Positions 1-42,705 of a stretch of DNA of 64,000 nucleotides are shown piece after piece (the stretch's first letter is position 1; every line of letters begins with the position of its first letter). Made by a program: the position numbers and the translations under genes. The stretch comes from Escherichia coli. GTDB lineage: Bacteria > Pseudomonadota > Gammaproteobacteria > Enterobacterales > Enterobacteriaceae. The stretch lies in assembly GCF_044324785.1 (NCBI RefSeq), contig NZ_CP172127.1. One strand, given 5' to 3'. Below the pieces are notes generated by a model. That model saw nothing but the letters and a program-made list of their open reading frames with translations, did no database searches and had not been told where the DNA came from.

Positions 1-272
1 AGTAAGAGGGAGAAAATTAACGGTCAGTCCGCACGCTATAACCAAATTGTTCAGCTAAGAAAGAAAACCAGAGATGCTAATCGAAGGGTGAACACAACGG
101 CATTGTTATGTTTATTTATATAGTTAGTTTTATAGCTAAAATTGAAATTATAAAAATAAATAATGAATTAGCAGGAGCATCAACAGTAATATCTTAATCT
201 CTGGTCGATTTATGTAAAACCGACCAGTATTATCGATAAATTATCGTCTGACTTATTTTGCTTCGATAAAGC

Positions 273-617
273 TTACACCGCAGCCACAATCTTAATTTCA
301 ACTTTATACTTCGGGTTCATCAAACCCGCTTGTACCGTGCAGCGCACCGGCGCATGACCCGCGACAACCCAGGCATCCCACGCTTTATTCATCGCCGCGA
401 AGTCGTTTTTATCGGCCAGGAAAATGGTGGCATCCAGAATGCTCGATTTATTGCTGCCCTGTTTTTCCAGCACGGCGTCAATCTGCGCCAGCGTGTTGGC
501 GGTTTGCTCAAAGGCATCGGCGTCGAGGTTTTCCGGTACACCAGTGTAGTAGAGCGTGTTGTTGTGGATTACTACATCAGACCAGCGGGCTTCAGCATCG
601 ATACGAACGATAGTCAT
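273..617 (-). CDS. yoaB: RidA/YjgF-family protein YoaB
   Basis: Track ORF 273..665 trimmed to the tandem ATG at 615-620; product begins MTIVRIDAEAR (114 aa). Confidence 0.85.
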   Translation of the reverse strand: MTIVRIDAEARWSDVVIHNNTLYYTGVPENLDADAFEQTANTLAQIDAVLEKQGSNKSSILDATIFLADKNDFAAMNKAWDAWVVAGHAPVRCTVQAGLMNPKYKVEIKIVAAV

Positions 618-724
618 CATTTTGTCCTCATTATACTTCCATTTTCGTGCTGCAAAGACTGCCACAATGTGAGGTCGCCGTCACCACTTCAACTGGCGAA
701 AGCGCCCTCATCCTGACATAATCC

Positions 725-740
725 CTGTTCAAATCAACAG
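725..740. promoter_or_regulatory. LexA box (SOS operator) upstream of yoaA
   Basis: CTGTTCAAATCAACAG fits CTGT-N8-ACAG; sits 9 bp before the yoaA GTG start in the yoaB-yoaA divergent region. Confidence 0.6.
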
Positions 741-748
741 GGGGTAGT

Positions 749-2659
749 GTGACGGACGATTTTGCACCAGACGGTCAGCTGGCGAAAGCGATACCAGGCT
801 TTAAGCCGCGAGAACCACAGCGACAGATGGCGGTAGCCGTCACCCAGGCGATAGAAAAAGGCCAGCCGCTGGTGGTGGAAGCAGGAACCGGTACGGGCAA
901 AACCTACGCTTACCTGGCCCCTGCGCTGCGGGCGAAAAAGAAAGTCATTATCTCGACCGGCTCAAAAGCGTTGCAGGATCAGCTCTACAGCCGCGATTTG
1001 CCAACAGTCTCAAAGGCGTTGAAATATACGGGCAACGTGGCGTTGCTGAAAGGGCGCTCAAACTACCTCTGCCTCGAACGTCTCGAACAGCAGGCGCTGG
1101 CGGGCGGCGATCTGCCGGTACAAATCTTAAGCGATGTGATCCTGCTGCGCTCCTGGTCTAATCAAACAGTCGATGGTGATATCAGCACCTGCGTCAGCGT
1201 GGCGGAAGATTCACAGGCGTGGCCGCTGGTCACCAGCACCAACGACAACTGTCTTGGCAGCGACTGCCCGATGTATAAAGATTGCTTTGTGGTCAAAGCA
1301 CGTAAAAAAGCGATGGACGCCGATGTGGTGGTGGTAAACCATCATCTCTTTCTGGCGGATATGGTGGTTAAAGAGAGTGGATTTGGCGAGTTGATCCCGG
1401 AAGCGGACGTCATGATCTTCGACGAAGCCCATCAGCTACCGGACATTGCCAGCCAGTATTTTGGTCAGTCACTCTCCAGTCGACAACTGCTCGACCTGGC
1501 AAAAGACATCACCATCGCCTACCGCACCGAATTAAAAGACACCCAGCAGTTACAAAAGTGCGCTGATCGTCTTGCCCAGAGTGCGCAGGATTTTCGTCTG
1601 CAACTCGGTGAGCCAGGTTATCGCGGTAACCTGCGTGAGCTGTTAGCTAATCCGCAAATTCAGCGGGCATTTTTACTGCTCGATGACACCCTGGAACTTT
1701 GTTATGACGTGGCGAAACTGTCACTGGGGCGTTCCGCCTTGCTGGATGCGGCATTTGAGCGCGCCACGTTGTATCGCACACGGCTGAAGCGGCTAAAAGA
1801 GATCAATCAGCCGGGCTACAGCTACTGGTACGAATGCACTTCGCGCCATTTTACTCTGGCTCTCACGCCGCTCAGCGTGGCGGATAAATTCAAAGAGTTA
1901 ATGGCGCAAAAGCCCGGTAGCTGGATCTTCACCTCAGCAACGCTGTCGGTGAACGACGATCTGCATCATTTCACCTCGCGGCTTGGGATAGAACAGGCGG
2001 AGTCGTTGCTATTGCCAAGCCCGTTTGATTACAGCCGCCAGGCGTTACTCTGTGTGCCGCGCAACCTGCCGCAAACCAATCAACCGGGCTCCGCACGGCA
2101 ACTGGCGGCAATGTTGCGACCGATCATCGAAGCTAACAACGGTCGTTGTTTTATGCTTTGTACCTCGCACGCCATGATGCGCGATCTGGCCGAGCAGTTC
2201 CGCGCTACCATGACGCTTCCCGTTTTGTTGCAGGGGGAAACCAGCAAAGGGCAACTGTTGCAGCAATTTGTCAGTGCCGGTAATGCGCTTCTTGTGGCAA
2301 CCAGTAGTTTCTGGGAAGGGGTGGACGTGCGTGGCGATACATTGTCATTGGTAATTATCGACAAATTGCCGTTTACCTCGCCGGATGATCCACTGTTAAA
2401 AGCGCGCATGGAAGATTGTCGTTTGCGCGGTGGCGACCCGTTCGATGAAGTACAACTGCCGGATGCGGTGATTACTCTCAAGCAGGGAGTAGGGCGACTG
2501 ATTCGCGACGCCGACGATCGCGGCGTGCTGGTGATTTGCGATAATCGGCTGGTGATGCGCCCTTACGGCGCGACGTTTCTCGCCAGTCTGCCGCCCGCGC
2601 CGCGCACCCGTGACATTGCCCGTGCGGTTCGCTTCCTTGCGATACCATCCTCCAGGTAA
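749..2659 (+). CDS. yoaA: DinG/XPD-family ATP-dependent helicase YoaA
   Basis: 636-aa ORF with GTG start; Walker A AGTGTGKT, DEAH-type box DEAHQL, Cys-rich Fe-S motif CLGSDCPMYKDC. Confidence 0.9.
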   Translation: MTDDFAPDGQLAKAIPGFKPREPQRQMAVAVTQAIEKGQPLVVEAGTGTGKTYAYLAPALRAKKKVIISTGSKALQDQLYSRDLPTVSKALKYTGNVALLKGRSNYLCLERLEQQALAGGDLPVQILSDVILLRSWSNQTVDGDISTCVSVAEDSQAWPLVTSTNDNCLGSDCPMYKDCFVVKARKKAMDADVVVVNHHLFLADMVVKESGFGELIPEADVMIFDEAHQLPDIASQYFGQSLSSRQLLDLAKDITIAYRTELKDTQQLQKCADRLAQSAQDFRLQLGEPGYRGNLRELLANPQIQRAFLLLDDTLELCYDVAKLSLGRSALLDAAFERATLYRTRLKRLKEINQPGYSYWYECTSRHFTLALTPLSVADKFKELMAQKPGSWIFTSATLSVNDDLHHFTSRLGIEQAESLLLPSPFDYSRQALLCVPRNLPQTNQPGSARQLAAMLRPIIEANNGRCFMLCTSHAMMRDLAEQFRATMTLPVLLQGETSKGQLLQQFVSAGNALLVATSSFWEGVDVRGDTLSLVIIDKLPFTSPDDPLLKARMEDCRLRGGDPFDEVQLPDAVITLKQGVGRLIRDADDRGVLVICDNRLVMRPYGATFLASLPPAPRTRDIARAVRFLAIPSSR

Positions 2660-2716
2660 TTTGTTACGGAGTATGGTATGATGCGCGCCTTTTTATTGAT
2701 CTAAGCACGAAGACCC

Positions 2717-3412
2717 ATGCGAATTCTGGCTATCGATACCGCGACAGAGGCCTGCTCTGTCGCTCTGTGGAACGACGGCACTGTCAACGCTCATTTTGAG
2801 CTTTGCCCTCGTGAACATACTCAACGAATTTTACCGATGGTGCAGGATATCCTGACCACCAGCGGAACTTCCCTGACTGACATTAACGCTCTGGCTTACG
2901 GGCGCGGCCCCGGTAGCTTTACTGGCGTGCGCATTGGTATTGGCATCGCGCAAGGGCTGGCACTTGGCGCAGAGCTGCCGATGATTGGCGTCTCCACGCT
3001 AATGACGATGGCGCAAGGGGCGTGGCGCAAAAACGGCGCAACACGCGTGCTGGCAGCCATTGACGCGCGAATGGGCGAAGTTTACTGGGCCGAATATCAG
3101 CGTGATGAAAACGGTATCTGGCACGGTGAAGAAACCGAAGCCGTACTCAAACCTGAACTCGTTCATGAACGGATGCAACAGCTTTCCGGGGAATGGGTGA
3201 CGGTAGGTACAGGCTGGCAAGCCTGGCCGGATCTCGGTAAAGAGAGCGGGCTGGTTTTGCGCTACGGAGAAGTTTTACTGCCAGCGGCGGAAGATATGCT
3301 GCCGATTGCTTGTCAGATGTTTGCCGAGGGTAAAACGGTGGCGGTGGAACATGCCGAACCGGTTTATTTACGTAACAACGTCGCATGGAAGAAACTTCCG
3401 GGCAAAGAATGA
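2717..3412 (+). CDS. tsaB: tRNA t6A37 threonylcarbamoyltransferase partner TsaB (YeaZ)
   Basis: 231-aa ORF; N-terminus [17 protein letters not shown] typical of the Kae1/TsaB/YeaZ family. Confidence 0.9.
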
Positions 3413-17353: not shown

Positions 17354-18535
17354 TTAGCGAATTTCTTTGTCTCTCCCGGCGCAAAGTCCGAAAATCGCCA
17401 TCAGTAGTGAAAGTATGGCAACACCCATCAATGGTATGGACCAGTCACCGTTAGTATCGTGTATTTTACCCATCAGCGGCGGCCCACAGGCTGCCAGCAA
17501 ATACCCGACGGATTGTGCCATCCCCGAGAGTGCCGCCGCCTGATGCGCAGAACTTGCCCGAAGACCAATGAACGTCAACCCTAGTATCATTGTTGCGCCG
17601 GAACCAAAACCGAAAAGCAGAGTCCAGGTGATCGCGTGCGCTGGCATAAAGCAGAGCCCAACCGCGCCCACTGCGCACATCAAGGCAACGAACGCTGCAA
17701 TACCACGCTGATCTTTCACATGATGTAAGAAAAGTGGGATCAGCAAACCGGGAGCTGCTGTGGCTAGTTGCAGCAAACCATGCAGTGAACCCGCCTGTGC
17801 TTCGCTATAGCCGTGACTGATGAGGATCGCCGGAAGCCAGCCAATAATCACGTAATAGATCAGTGAGTTGATCCCAAGAAACAATGTTACCTGCCAGGCA
17901 AGCGGCGAACGCCAGATACCCCGAGTATGTAAGGCGCGTGAGGTACTCAAATTTGCATGTTGTTGACTTCGCCACTGTGGCAGCCATAAAAAAAGAGCCA
18001 GCAGAGGAAAACACATCAGCATGAGCAACGCGCCTTGCCAGCCAAAACCGTTCAAAGCCAGCGGCACGACCATAGCCGATCCCAGTGCCGCTGCAGCTCC
18101 CATTGTCAGGGAATATGCGCCGGTAAGTCTGGCGACGGAATGAGGGAAATCGCGTTTAATTAATCCTGGCAGTAAGACATTGCCTAATGCAATCCCACCG
18201 CCAATGACCGCTGTACCGCCAAATAATAAGTAAGGCGAAGGGAGAGAGCGAATTGCGATACCAGCACAGATCAAAAGTAACGCGGCAAACAGGCTACGCT
18301 CCATACCAAAACGTCGCGCCACCGGGGCAGCCAGCGGTGAGATTAGCGCAAAGGCTAATAATGGCAGGGTGGTCAATAAGCCGGTTTGCGCCGTCGTCAG
18401 CGAGTAAGCGAAACGAATCGTATCCAGTAACGGTGCTGCGCCGGTAAAGGTGACGCGTAATGTTGTGGCAATCATTAGAATGCCAGCGATAAGGACAATC
18501 CTGTTTTTGCCGCTTAATGAAGTTGAACAGGTCAT
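17354..18535 (-). CDS. yeaN: MFS transporter YeaN (NimT)
   Basis: 393-aa 12-TM-like ORF divergent from the AraC-family regulator yeaM. Confidence 0.8.
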   Translation of the reverse strand: MTCSTSLSGKNRIVLIAGILMIATTLRVTFTGAAPLLDTIRFAYSLTTAQTGLLTTLPLLAFALISPLAAPVARRFGMERSLFAALLLICAGIAIRSLPSPYLLFGGTAVIGGGIALGNVLLPGLIKRDFPHSVARLTGAYSLTMGAAAALGSAMVVPLALNGFGWQGALLMLMCFPLLALFLWLPQWRSQQHANLSTSRALHTRGIWRSPLAWQVTLFLGINSLIYYVIIGWLPAILISHGYSEAQAGSLHGLLQLATAAPGLLIPLFLHHVKDQRGIAAFVALMCAVGAVGLCFMPAHAITWTLLFGFGSGATMILGLTFIGLRASSAHQAAALSGMAQSVGYLLAACGPPLMGKIHDTNGDWSIPLMGVAILSLLMAIFGLCAGRDKEIR

Positions 18536-18631
18536 ATGCTTCTCATTGTTACAAACGAGGCTGTACCTTACCGTTTTTATTGTTATGTTGAATCAAGCTA
18601 AAATGACAAATTATCGCTAAATTCGGACAAA

Positions 18632-19453
18632 ATGATGCATAGGTTGAATCTCAATGGCTATGAACCCGACCGACACCATGAAGCCGCGGTCGCATTTTGT
18701 ATTCACGCCGGAACGGATGAGTTAACCAGTCCTGTACATCAGCACCGCAAAGGGCAGCTGATACTGGCGCTACATGGTGCAATTACCTGTACGGTGGAAA
18801 ATGCTTTGTGGATGGTGCCGCCGCAATATGCGGTTTGGATACCGGGAGGGGTGGAACATAGCAATCAAGTGACAGCTAACGCTGAACTCTGTTTTCTGTT
18901 TATCGAACCCAGCGCAGTGACAATGCCGACAACCTGTTGCACATTGAAAATATCGCCCTTATGCCGGGAATTAATTTTAACCCTGGCAAACAGGACGACG
19001 ACTCAGCGTGCTGAGCCGATGACCCGCAGATTAATTCAGGTCCTGTTTGATGAACTCCCTCAGCAGCCACAACAACAGCTGCACCTACCCGTTTCTTCTC
19101 ATCCTAAAATTCGCGCGATGGTGGAGATGATGGCGAAAGAGCCCGTCGAGTGGGGGTCATTGGGGCAATGGGCTCGCTTTTTTGCGATGAGTGAACGCAA
19201 TCTTGCCCGACTGATAGTGAAAGAGACGGGGTTGAGTTTTCGCCAGTGGCGTCAGCAGTTACAGCTGATTATGGCGCTTCAGGGATTAGTGAAAGGCGAT
19301 ACTGTACAGAAAGTTGCTCATACGCTGGGGTATGATTCAACAACGGCCTTTATTACTATGTTTAAGAAAGGCCTGGGGCAAACGCCAGGCCGATATATTG
19401 CGGGATTAACTACTGTTTCCCCACAATCAGCGAAACCAGACCCGCGGCAATAA
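18632..19453 (+). CDS. nimR: AraC-family transcriptional regulator NimR (YeaM)
   Basis: 273 aa; cupin-like N-terminus and C-terminal AraC HTH ([23 protein letters not shown]). Confidence 0.85.
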
Positions 19454-19856
19454 GCGGGCCAACCGGTACGCCGCGAAACAGCGCCACGCCCAAAACAGTG
19501 CCCACCAGCAGCCCGGCGACCAGTTGCGGCTGGCTGCCCATTAACGTCACGCCGCGCCCACCTAGCCAGGAGACAATAACGCCTACTGCAATTGCCACCA
19601 GCGATTTCCAGTTCAGAAACGAGTGAATCAGGGTTGAGGGCGGTAGCGTCCCGCTGGCGATGGGGGCCATAACGCCAATCGTCAGAATGATTATCCCGAT
19701 ACTTAGCCCCTGTTTTTCAATCCACGGGAAAAAGGTGCTTAACGGTGTGACGCGGACAATGATTAACACCAGAATTGAAACGGCGACAGTGGTGTTATGA
19801 CTGATAAAGCCCAGCGCAGCTAACCCGAGCAGGATCAGCAAAGTGACATCAAACAT
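19410..19856 (-). CDS. yeaL: DUF441 inner-membrane protein YeaL
   Basis: 148-aa hydrophobic ORF; its 3' end overlaps the nimR 3' end by 44 nt. Confidence 0.8.
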
Positions 19857-20025
19857 CGTGGTTTCCTTGCCAAAGAATAATAAGCCTGCTTACTTTACGC
19901 TTGCTGCAGGAAGGAAGTAGAAAATCTTTACGTTTTTTGCATAAAAAATCAGGCGAACTGTCATCAAACTGCCATTTGCGCACGCTAACAATAACGTGAA
20001 AACAGCTATCTCCCGGGGGCATACT

Positions 20026-20130
20026 ATGAACGATCAAATGTTCGTCGAGACTCTGATTATCACGTCATCGTTTTTTGCCATTGCTGTTGTGCTGGTTTTG
20101 TCCGTTCTTCTTATCGAACGGACAGGCTAG
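20026..20130 (+). CDS. yoaI: small membrane protein YoaI (34 aa)
   Basis: Direct reading gives [34 protein letters not shown] then TAG; stop codon abuts the yeaK stop. Confidence 0.75.
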
Positions 20131-20634
20131 TTACGCAGTGCGGCGGAAATTGACCAGTTCTGGTTGCGCAATGCGCAAATAATCCGCGGTTTTCAAAATA
20201 ACGGATTTATCCAGCATGCCTGCATTGAAGGCGATTTCATCAAATCGTTCGAAGAGTAGGGGATCGGCAACCAGTTTGAGTTTTGGATGGAAGCTGAAAG
20301 GGGGGATCGCGCCGAAGACACAGCCTGTGAGTTCATCGACTTCCGCCGGGCTGGCCAACGAAGCGCGTAATCCGCCTATATGGCTGGCGAGTTGGCTCAG
20401 ATCGGCCTGTTGATCGGCAGCGAGGATCGCCAGAACATGTTGATTTACACCATTGCCTTTGACTTTACATACCAGTGCCTTAGCCCCCTGGCCTAAAGCG
20501 GTGCCACGAATTTCTGACACCGCTTCACATTTACCTACCGCTTCATGGGTAACGACGCGGAAGTCAGCACCTTCTTGTGATAATAAAGCGATTAACCGCT
20601 GATGCGTCACGCTTCCTTTAGCCATTTCAGTCAT
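20131..20634 (-). CDS. yeaK: YbaK/ProX-type aminoacyl-tRNA deacylase YeaK
   Basis: 167-aa ORF MTEMAKGSVTHQRLIALLSQEGADFRVVTHEA. Confidence 0.8.
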   Translation of the reverse strand: MTEMAKGSVTHQRLIALLSQEGADFRVVTHEAVGKCEAVSEIRGTALGQGAKALVCKVKGNGVNQHVLAILAADQQADLSQLASHIGGLRASLASPAEVDELTGCVFGAIPPFSFHPKLKLVADPLLFERFDEIAFNAGMLDKSVILKTADYLRIAQPELVNFRRTA

Positions 20635-20676
20635 TTCATGCTCCTGAGATTACAAGCAAACAACCACAGAAGGTTA

Positions 20677-22167
20677 TCATGAACGGCTGTTTTTGTTCTG
20701 CTTATTGACATATAAACGCTCATCGGAAGCTTTATACGCATCATGTAACGTATCGTTTTCTTTCATCGCGTAAATACCGGAAGAGAAGCCGATCTCTTTC
20801 TGCGGCGCGATATGTTGCAGACGTTTTTCGATACGTTCAGGCAGTTGTGCTGCAATTTGCGGCGTTGAATCGACAAGAATGATGCAGAATTCATCGCCAC
20901 CGAGTCGGATGGCATAATCACTTTTACGAATCGACTGTTTAATCGCCTGCGCTAATAACGTAATCGCTAAATCCCCCTCCTGATGACCGAGGGTGTCATT
21001 TATTTGCTTTAACTTGTCCATGTCAATTGCAATAAACATCACCGAAGAACCGGATTGCACCAGTTTCTGCAACCGCTGCTCCAGTTCAGGGGTTAAAATT
21101 TTGCGATTATACAGTCCAGTCATCGCATCACTAATATTTTCTCGCGACACATTTTGGTATAAACGGAAGTGCATCCGGACCATATTCAACAAAATTAATG
21201 CCGTCAAAATCCAGAACAGAACGCTTTTCCACGAAGACGTGATAAAGTAAAGAATATCAATGGATAACGAGACACGAATGCCGCCCGGTAAGTCATGGAC
21301 GTAACTGACATACTGGAACAGATTATCTTCGCTCTGGTTGATGATAATGTCGCGCCCCGAATCGGTATCGGTTAGCGTGACATTGAGAAAACGCCAGAGG
21401 AGAGGGCGGTCATGAGTGTAAAAGATATTCCGCAGATTGTTTTTGTTAATATCCAGCAGCACAATCCCTTTTAGCTGCCCTGCGACATATACCGGCGTCA
21501 GCAAACTCATCACGTTCTGTTTAGTACGCTGATCCTGGTAAATGCTCGATAATACGGTACGCCCGGTAAATACCTTTTCAATATCTTTGCGATCGATGCC
21601 AATACTTCCTGACTGCAGGAAAGACCAGTTATTCATCGCAAAGTACTCAACATTAACCGGCTCATAAAAATAGACATAGCGGTCATTGAGATCGAGATAA
21701 TAGTGAAATTTCTCTTCGGCCATCCCAAGACCTGAACCGTAATCATCCTGGTGGCGGTTGCCTTCCACTGCCTGATCAAAAGCGGGTAATAGTGCAGCAG
21801 CTTCCACAATTGTGTCGCAGTCAGTGGATGCGGTTTGTAGTGTGCCGCGTAAGCCCGGGTATTTATGGGCAGTCAGGTTTAAGCCATGGGTATTATTGGC
21901 AGACTCAAAAGCCTCGCAGATGGCGCGCCGCTGTTCTGGCGACACTTCCGACTGCTCAGCAGCGAGAGCGCGCATCACATGCGCGGCAATACTCTGATTC
22001 TGATACTTATCATAAAGAAAGGAGGAGTCTGCTCTCTGCACGATATAGCGCAGATAGGCACTCATTGCTCTGTCGCTGGCGACAAGTTCAAAAATAAGGA
22101 AGGAAGATGTCAGCACAATGACACTTGCGGCGATAAAATGCCGGAGCATTCTATGGTGCAATTTCAT
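20677..22167 (-). CDS. dgcJ: membrane diguanylate cyclase DgcJ (YeaJ)
   Basis: GGDEF motif RLGGDEF; two TM segments flanking a periplasmic sensor region; conserved start MKLHHRMLRHF at ATG 22167 (track ORF extended by 60 codons). Confidence 0.85.
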   Translation of the reverse strand: MKLHHRMLRHFIAASVIVLTSSFLIFELVASDRAMSAYLRYIVQRADSSFLYDKYQNQSIAAHVMRALAAEQSEVSPEQRRAICEAFESANNTHGLNLTAHKYPGLRGTLQTASTDCDTIVEAAALLPAFDQAVEGNRHQDDYGSGLGMAEEKFHYYLDLNDRYVYFYEPVNVEYFAMNNWSFLQSGSIGIDRKDIEKVFTGRTVLSSIYQDQRTKQNVMSLLTPVYVAGQLKGIVLLDINKNNLRNIFYTHDRPLLWRFLNVTLTDTDSGRDIIINQSEDNLFQYVSYVHDLPGGIRVSLSIDILYFITSSWKSVLFWILTALILLNMVRMHFRLYQNVSRENISDAMTGLYNRKILTPELEQRLQKLVQSGSSVMFIAIDMDKLKQINDTLGHQEGDLAITLLAQAIKQSIRKSDYAIRLGGDEFCIILVDSTPQIAAQLPERIEKRLQHIAPQKEIGFSSGIYAMKENDTLHDAYKASDERLYVNKQNKNSRS

Positions 22168-40231: not shown

Positions 40232-41510
40232 ATGGAACAATATGATCAAATTGGCGCAAGACTGGACCGCTTGCCTTTGGCCCGGTTTCATTATCGTATA
40301 TTTGGTATTATAAGCTTTAGTCTGTTATTAACGGGTTTTTTGAGTTATTCAGGCAATGTTGTTTTAGCAAAGCTGGTAAGCAATGGATGGTCAAATAATT
40401 TCCTCAATGCCGCCTTTACCTCGGCATTAATGTTTGGTTATTTCATCGGCTCTCTTACCGGTGGGTTCATCGGTGATTATTTTGGGCGGCGCAGGGCTTT
40501 TCGCATAAATCTTCTCATCGTCGGTATTGCGGCAACAGGGGCCGCTTTTGTCCCTGATATGTACTGGCTCATCTTCTTTCGCTTCCTGATGGGCACAGGA
40601 ATGGGGGCGCTGATTATGGTTGGCTATGCTTCGTTTACGGAGTTTATCCCCGCGACGGTGCGTGGAAAATGGTCCGCGCGGCTCTCATTTGTCGGTAACT
40701 GGTCGCCCATGTTGTCTGCGGCGATAGGCGTGGTGGTTATCGCTTTTTTTAGTTGGCGGATAATGTTTCTGCTGGGTGGTATTGGCATACTGTTAGCCTG
40801 GTTTCTCTCAGGTAAATACTTTATTGAGTCGCCTCGATGGTTGGCGGGGAAAGGACAAATCGCAGGTGCAGAAAGCCAACTTCGTGAAGTAGAGCAGCAA
40901 ATTGAAAGAGAGAAGAGTGTTCGTTTACCCCCGCTTACTTTGAATCAGAGCAACAGCAAGGCTAACATAATCAATGGTACTTTCTGGCTGCTGTTTAAAG
41001 GGAAAATGTTACGACGTACATTAGTCGCGATTACTGTTTTAATTGCAATGAACATTTCACTTTATACCATCACCGTATGGATACCGACCATATTTGTTAA
41101 CTCCGGCATTGATGTCGATAAATCAATATTAATGACTGCTGTTATTATGATTGGTGCTCCGGTAGGAATATTTATTGCGGCATTAATTATTGATCATTTT
41201 CCTCGTCGATTATTTGGCTCCGCCTTACTTATTATTATTGCCGTGTTAGGCTATATCTATTCAATTCAGACTACAGAGTGGGCGATTTTAATCTATGGCC
41301 TGGTGATGATCTTCTTTTTATACATGTATGTTTGCTTCGCGTCGGCGGTTTATATCCCGGAGCTTTGGCCAACGCATTTACGCCTGCGCGGTTCAGGTTT
41401 CGTTAATGCCGTCGGACGGATCGTCGCGGTCTTCACGCCTTATGGCGTTGCGGCACTATTAACGCATTATGGGTCAATCACGGTGTTTATAGTGCTTGGC
41501 GTGATGTTAG

Positions 41511-41533
<23 letters not shown>
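40232..41533 (+). pseudogene. ydjE: MFS transporter ydjE, 3'-truncated by IS5 insertion
   Basis: Reading frame enters IS5 at codon 427 and ends after 7 IS-encoded residues (GKVRTSP); the displaced final 26 codons continue in frame at 42706..42789. Confidence 0.75.

Positions 41534-42705
<1,172 letters not shown>

Follow-up and report, generated by a model that had tools for sequence, protein, structure and literature searches.

A 44-nt convergent overlap between nimR and yeaL of Escherichia coli, probably a by-product of a shifted nimR stop codon

The nimR-yeaL Locus of E. coli

The DNA analyzed here is a stretch of 64,000 nucleotides of an E. coli genome (contig NZ_CP172127.1), which we refer to as the window. 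The genes nimR (yeaM) and yeaL lie in it on opposite strands, and their 3' ends share coding sequence:

17354-18535: nimT, divergently adjacent to nimR
18632..19453, + strand: nimR (yeaM) coding sequence, 273 aa, AraC-family regulator (open reading frame, Pfam, RefSeq name nimR)
19410..19856, - strand: yeaL coding sequence, 148 aa, DUF441 membrane protein (open reading frame, Pfam)
19410..19453, both strands: convergent coding overlap of 44 nt, NimR residues 260-273 and stop codon opposite YeaL residues 135-148 and stop codon
19400..19450, + strand: post-domain tail of NimR, residues 257-273, non-conserved and rich in Pro, Ser, Thr and Gln
19424..19426, + strand: NimR codon 265 (CAA, Gln), a TAA or TGA stop in most other genera (80-locus alignment)
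19451..19453, + strand: nimR stop codon TAA, antisense of the YeaL Leu135-Ile136 junction (CTT ATT)

Each strand of the overlap carries 13 full sense codons, 2 nt of a 14th and a stop codon, and the phase, read directly from the sequence, is (123:132). A sequence-only reading of this DNA had proposed a 44-nt convergent overlap of nimR and yeaL, and both the gene identities and the coordinates are borne out by the open reading frames, by RefSeq and by a 76-nt query around the overlap, which 5407 of 5426 complete E. coli genomes match with no more than two mismatches. As the region is reproduced in so many genomes, the overlap is not a sequencing error. The same 44-nt overlap is found in the RefSeq annotation of K-12, of the closest strain, of an O157:H7 strain and of strain 99-3165; in K-12 the coordinates are 1872376-1872822 (+) for yeaL and 1872779-1873600 (-) for yeaM (PMC7373196 Table S1). 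The overlap is already annotated and already known, and there is nothing unusual about it among short convergent overlaps.

Both reading frames are genuine, conserved protein-coding genes with orthologues in dozens of genera. NimR shows the architecture of the AraC/XylS family, with an N-terminal cupin-like sensor domain and a C-terminal double helix-turn-helix. In Pfam it matches AraC_binding (residues 22-148), Cupin_2, HTH_18 (residues 180-255, E = 3.4e-19) and HTH_AraC. HTH_18 ends at residue 255-256, the sole match to a solved structure (PDB 6swi) covers residues 178-255, and the AraC-family matches in NCBIfam likewise stop near residue 255. Because the DNA-binding domain ends at residue 255, the part of NimR within the overlap (residues 260-273) belongs to a post-domain tail. 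In YeaL, residues 7-145 of 148 match positions 1-139 of 139 of the DUF441 profile (Pfam, E = 2.7e-44), and the overlap therefore carries the conserved end of this protein, which corresponds to its last transmembrane helix. A scan of NCBIfam returned no model for YeaL.

In the literature, NimR (YeaM) is an AraC-family regulator with nimR/nimT as its single target; it represses nimT and controls sensitivity to 2-nitroimidazole (PMC5934670, citing Ogasawara et al., 2015). No functional link between nimR and yeaL was found in the literature. Many species have yeaL without nimR, and in some of these another convergent gene abuts yeaL.

Overlap Length Across the Enterobacteriaceae

Conservation across the Enterobacteriaceae, to which the sequence-only reading had pointed, was assessed by scanning species-representative genomes for YeaL. 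This gave 80 Enterobacteriaceae loci, in each of which the nimR orthologue and both stop codons were located. The length of the overlap proved labile among the 80 loci, with 17 nt the commonest value:

44 nt: E. coli, the Citrobacter freundii group and some other Citrobacter; also strain S646 of the C. amalonaticus group
17 nt (commonest): most genera, including Klebsiella, Enterobacter, Raoultella, Kluyvera, Leclercia and Lelliottia; further loci are an Escherichia lineage labelled E. coli E69 and C. youngae ATCC 29220
45 nt: Yokenella
20-21 nt: part of the C. amalonaticus group; S. enterica subsp. diarizonae
6 nt: Trabulsiella
0 nt: S. enterica subsp. arizonae
-1 to -5 nt: Cedecea sulfonylureivorans, C. 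werkmanii, Buttiauxella
gaps of 120-216 nt between the genes: few loci
nimR absent beside yeaL: E. albertii, E. whittamii, Kosakonia, Phytobacter and others

The two proteins differ in how their C-termini behave. The YeaL stop lies at the same codon in all 80 loci and the protein is conserved to its last residues. In a C-terminal alignment, the NimR orthologues diverge in sequence and length after ...TPGRY255, with total lengths of 257-276 aa. In S. enterica subsp. diarizonae and arizonae, nimR differs from its Escherichia and Citrobacter counterparts by a 1-nt indel at the 3' end, placing the tail in a different frame that ends in …TPGQYLTGELLFSHN before the stop in diarizonae (overlap 21 nt) and in …TPGQYLTG before the stop in arizonae (0 nt). 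Such a change of frame again indicates that the tail can vary freely.

Several loci show rearrangements at this site. In E. coli 23CRST051 (NZ_AP045826.1; locus L085, 1501-2303) an IS1 element lies in or next to the nimR/yeaL overlap and separates the genes, both of which have acquired new C-termini (nimR 840 nt, a yeaL-like frame of 501 nt), so that the pair is naturally uncoupled. In Escherichia sp. MOD1-EC7003 (locus L003, approximately 2470-2620) a remnant of nimR consists of a match to residues 2-42 joined to the last 22 codons or so, which adjoin and overlap yeaL; the yeaL coding sequence is intact, and half of the stem of a putative terminator described below is lost with the deletion. 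Twelve of the nimR-less loci belong to Kosakonia, Phytobacter, Entomohabitans, Dryocola and Cedecea neteri. In these, a different convergent gene (C-terminus like ...YYLLCSALE..WQRR) ends a few bases from the yeaL stop; the lack of a spacer downstream of yeaL is thus seen in other, unrelated settings as well.

Origin of the 44-nt Overlap

The difference between the 17-nt and 44-nt arrangements can be traced to one codon. At window positions 19424-19426, genera with a 17-nt overlap (NimR of 264 aa) have TAA or TGA, whereas E. coli (273 aa) has CAA. The first bases of NimR codon 265 and YeaL codon 145 are complementary to each other, and in the 80-locus alignment Ile145 of YeaL (ATY) goes with a nimR stop, while Val145 (GTG or GTT; GTG in E. 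coli) goes with CAA. This covariation of the stop with Ile145 includes apparent reversions in E. coli E69 and C. youngae ATCC 29220. Comparison with outgroups suggests, by parsimony, that the 17-nt overlap is ancestral and the 44-nt overlap derived, and requires no fewer than two apparent reversals.

Where translation of the longer NimR ends is also set by yeaL. The TAA at 19451-19453 exists because of the synonymous Leu codon (CTT) used in yeaL; other genera have CTG ATT at YeaL Leu135-Ile136, which yields no stop in the nimR frame.

We next considered the length of the overlap against chance. In this antisense phase the stop frequency is approximately 5% per codon, as counted over the 45 long open reading frames of the window. 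Reading in from the 3' end of a gene, the median open run is 19 codons, and a run of at least 14 codons is possible in 67% of the 45. If nimR has no stop of its own ahead of yeaL, 44 nt is the length to be expected, and a run of at least 14 codons is expected by chance.

A Putative yeaL Terminator Inside nimR

As there is no spacer between the genes, the signals that stop transcription must sit inside the partner gene. A terminator scan identified a candidate for yeaL:

19360..19391, - strand: putative intrinsic terminator of yeaL, within nimR codons 244-254 (conserved AraC motif)

The hairpin site given by the consensus terminator scan (19391..19370, - strand) starts 18 nt past the yeaL stop. 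Its stem, GGCCUGG/CCAGGCC, has seven pairs (six of them G-C) around an 8-nt loop, and is followed by the tail UUUCUUAAAC (scan tail TTTCTTAAAC). The U-tract is interrupted in E. coli (UUUCUU); the tail is UUUUUU in Citrobacter and Salmonella, and an independent scan confirmed the site in C. braakii and found no such site in K. pneumoniae. The E. coli yeaL 3' region folds at -14.1 kcal/mol, which is not stronger than shuffled sequence (z = -0.49) and by itself is unremarkable.

The codons of nimR that encode the stem are conserved at their synonymous positions. Among 22 Escherichia, Citrobacter and Salmonella sequences, the four wobble positions in the stem (Gly247 GGC, Leu248 CTG, Pro252 CCA and Gly253 GGC) are identical in at least 21, while the three wobble positions in the loop vary (diversity 0.52-0.76). 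Only 10.5% of the 152 conserved-residue codons of nimR are so invariant, giving p of approximately 1e-4, a value that is approximate as the sequences are phylogenetically related. The stem holds the only two of 11 Gly codons and the only one of 10 Pro codons in nimR to be conserved to this degree. Folding of the same eight codons gave a mean of -13.8 kcal/mol for Escherichia, Citrobacter and Salmonella, vs. -6.6 for 34 other genera. No compensatory double changes were found in the stem among the 22 sequences; given this and the z-score of -0.49, it is the synonymous-site conservation that argues for a terminator, and this conservation could instead reflect a function of the nimR mRNA or codon bias.

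From these sequence comparisons we infer a putative intrinsic terminator of yeaL in the Escherichia/Citrobacter/Salmonella clade. That the AraC-motif codons of nimR double as the yeaL terminator in this clade, with four synonymous positions held for pairing of the stem, and that nimR would thereby be shielded from antisense transcription while itself reading through yeaL, is a proposal to which we give about even odds. The embedded terminator, rather than the overlap, may be the part that is so far undescribed.

The hairpin is alike to known intrinsic terminators located in a neighboring coding sequence in its GC-rich stem (7-9 bp in this class), loop (4-8 nt), U-tract and position 18 nt past the yeaL stop, and in that synonymous positions of the host gene, nimR, appear to be held so that the putative stem pairs. 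It differs from them in that the yeaL candidate is known from sequence alone, has an imperfect U-tract in E. coli and is absent from most genera with the gene pair. Nor is the candidate bidirectional, the + strand tail (GAUAUAUU) being U-poor and inside the nimR frame. A bidirectional terminator serving both genes was rejected, as the + strand tail GATATATT lacks a U-tract and the hairpin is located within the nimR open reading frame, upstream of its stop. In the interval 18000-20700, an Rfam scan gave nothing above threshold; the best hit, JUMPstart, scored 21.5 bits where the gathering score is 35 (E = 0.14).

Transcription of the Gene Pair

On the + strand, the terminator scan found no terminator-like site for nimR in 18400-20200, and a promoter scan of the same interval found no consensus promoters. 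Past the nimR stop the sequence has an unusual base composition:

19440..19600, + strand: untranslated C-rich, G-poor stretch past the nimR stop (yeaL antisense), GC 0.61-0.70, GC skew -0.20 to -0.27

More speculatively, the composition of this stretch would make it a possible Rho entry region for nimR transcripts.

The sequence-only reading had also deduced overlapping convergent transcripts. This holds in so far as two complete mRNAs logically share at least 44 nt, and antisense RNA-seq reads over yeaL have been published: in the wild type, sense and antisense values are 4.5 and 2.9 RPM for yeaL, and 17.6 and 0.84 RPM for yeaM (PMC7373196 Table S1c). Both genes are weakly expressed and these values are low per-gene counts from one study. 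Their pattern fits nimR read-through into yeaL and an early end of yeaL transcripts inside nimR. Neither gene appears, with regard to 3' ends, in the accessible part of the Term-seq supplements of eLife 62438.

A selected role for the overlap could be sought in this convergent transcription, which might couple the two genes in the manner of an excludon, through RNA polymerase collision or cleavage of the duplex by RNase III. Many genera retain the tail-to-tail arrangement with overlapping ends, the antisense reads of yeaL amount to approximately one third of the nimR sense density per kb, low-level p19-captured dsRNA reads are recorded for both nimR and yeaL (PMC7373196), and convergent excludons are common in E. 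coli, where 165 have been reported (PMC12288877). Like these, the nimR and yeaL mRNAs would be complementary over at least 44 nt, or approximately 92 nt if the yeaL terminator is real. The likeness is one of gene arrangement, and the length of the nimR/yeaL overlap is evolutionarily labile. Lengths from -5 to 45 nt, gaps of 120-216 nt in some species and the absence of nimR beside yeaL in E. albertii, E. whittamii, Kosakonia, Phytobacter and others all speak against coupling, as do the lack of a known functional link between the genes and the description of NimR as a regulator with a single target (PMC5934670). Sense reads of neither gene rise in rnc mutants (PMC7373196), leaving coupling through RNase III unsupported, and in the accessible part of the dsRNA table of that study nimR and yeaL are mentioned in the per-gene sheets only. 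We consider selection for coupling improbable, at around one chance in ten.

Constraint on the Two Reading Frames

The sequence-only reading had stated that the overlap constrains both sequences, which the alignments do not support. In the 14 species with a NimR of 273 aa, YeaL residues 135-148 are invariant (0 of 14 positions vary), whereas 10 of the 14 positions of the NimR tail vary, with non-conservative changes. In phase (123:132) the third positions of yeaL codons face the second positions of nimR codons, and selection on the NimR tail should therefore lower synonymous diversity of yeaL in the overlap. In the group with a 44-nt overlap, third-position diversity of yeaL was 0.288 in the overlap vs. 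0.367 in the rest of the gene, a difference that is not significant (P = 0.14); in the wider clade the values were 0.392 and 0.382 (P = 0.55). Constraint from both sides was consequently rejected, as the NimR tail causes no significant fall in synonymous variation of yeaL. Together, the variable NimR tail, the invariant YeaL end and the undiminished diversity of yeaL argue that the constraint visible in these alignments is one-sided and that the NimR tail passively follows yeaL.

These data also bear on the idea that the nine-residue extension of NimR is a functional gain, such as a tail for stability or interaction, with both frames under selection. The 273-aa form is fixed in E. coli and common to many Citrobacter species, and T261, S263, S266 and P269 are invariant within it; these four residues, however, face YeaL codons that are unchanged in the same species. 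The variation at the other positions is of a non-conservative kind (K/R/T/I, D/V/G, P/L/R), related lineages have shorter proteins of 257-265 aa, and the tail lies beyond every domain match. With the synonymous diversity of yeaL not significantly depressed, a functional tail appears very unlikely.

That the overlap is an artefact of annotation or sequencing, with one frame ending earlier or being misassigned, can practically be dismissed: many convergent overlaps above 60 bp are misannotated 3' extensions (PMC2478687) and most NimR orthologues are nine residues shorter, but stop codons require no judgement of start sites, the nimR frame meets no stop before 19451, nor the yeaL frame before 19412, and the sequence is reproduced in 5407 genomes with YeaL conserved to its last residues. 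A misannotated or truncated NimR or YeaL was rejected at the DNA level on the open reading frames, the concordant genomes and the orthologue alignments. The suspicion that a true product might be shorter does not apply to E. coli, which has no earlier in-frame stop; it does describe most orthologues, in which NimR has 264 aa and the overlap 17 nt.

A Neutral Stop-Shift Reading of the Overlap

The reading that we favor, with a probability of roughly 0.85, is that of a neutral stop-shift overlap between two genuine genes, including transcription termination inside the partner genes. In this reading, nimR and yeaL are independent genes placed tail to tail with zero intergenic spacer, and the overlap is a neutral by-product of where the first in-frame stop falls when nimR is read across the antisense of yeaL. 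In E. coli and the C. freundii group, the conservative change of YeaL Ile145 to Val (A to G on the yeaL strand) would have turned the nimR stop into CAA, making NimR nine codons longer, up to the TAA that arises from CTT-ATT in yeaL. These additional residues fall beyond the AraC DNA-binding domain, are not conserved and are without selection of their own; selection acts on YeaL, the tail mirroring synonymous changes of yeaL. Transcription of yeaL probably ends at the hairpin and U-tract antisense within nimR codons 244-254, and that of nimR, which has no intrinsic terminator, probably runs into the antisense of yeaL until stopped by Rho or by decay. The stop shift and the one-sided selection are shown by sequence comparison, and the two termination steps are those we infer.

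Convergent overlapping gene pairs were reportedly treated by Rogozin et al. in 2002, as cited in Palleja et al. The phase (123:132) is the commonest for convergent overlaps below approximately 50 bp, and the phase frequencies in E. coli fit an origin by stop-codon mutation (Lillo and Krakauer, 2007; PMC2174442). The same stop-shift mechanism was described by Palleja et al. (2008), who found convergent overlaps to be the class most often real (PMC2478687). As in such pairs, nimR and yeaL are both real genes, lie on opposite strands and share only their 3' ends, with a stop displaced relative to the orthologues; they likewise have phase (123:132), a length below the 60-bp artefact range and an overlap kept only among close relatives. 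Nothing essential sets them apart, and what nimR/yeaL adds is an Ile/Val exchange that toggles the stop of the neighboring gene in several lineages.

The overlap itself is of little significance, being in the standard annotation of every E. coli genome and of a well-described class. It does provide a clean teaching example, in which a conservative Ile/Val change switches the stop of a neighbor and just one of the two frames is under selection. If the embedded terminator is true, it would be one more regulatory RNA structure kept through the synonymous sites of an unrelated gene on the opposite strand. It would then be relevant to recoding and genome design, as synonymous changes in nimR codons 247-253 could alter termination of yeaL.

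Other Features of the Window

Ten convergent pairs are annotated in the window; nimR and yeaL overlap by 44 nt, ynjH and nudG by 35 nt, and yoaI and yeaK abut. The genes ynjH (53273..53545, + strand) and nudG (53511..53918, - strand) share positions 53511-53545 and are RefSeq-annotated in the closest genome; the pair resembles nimR/yeaL in orientation class, in its similar length, in lying in the same genome region and in being annotated by RefSeq, and consists of different genes. In the interval 20026-20634, yoaI (+ strand, ending at 20130) and yeaK (- strand, ending at 20131) meet with a gap of zero. Published RNA-seq values for yoaI are higher in antisense (13.4 RPM) than in sense (2.4 RPM), consistent with read-through from yeaK.

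Compared with the closest complete genome (NZ_CP062811.1), the window contains an insertion of approximately 1.2 kb at 41510-42705. It encodes an IS5-family transposase (open reading frame 41543..42559; NCBIfam NF033581, E = 1.8e-109) and lies in the 3' end of ydjE, leaving an open reading frame of 433 aa with an altered C-terminus.
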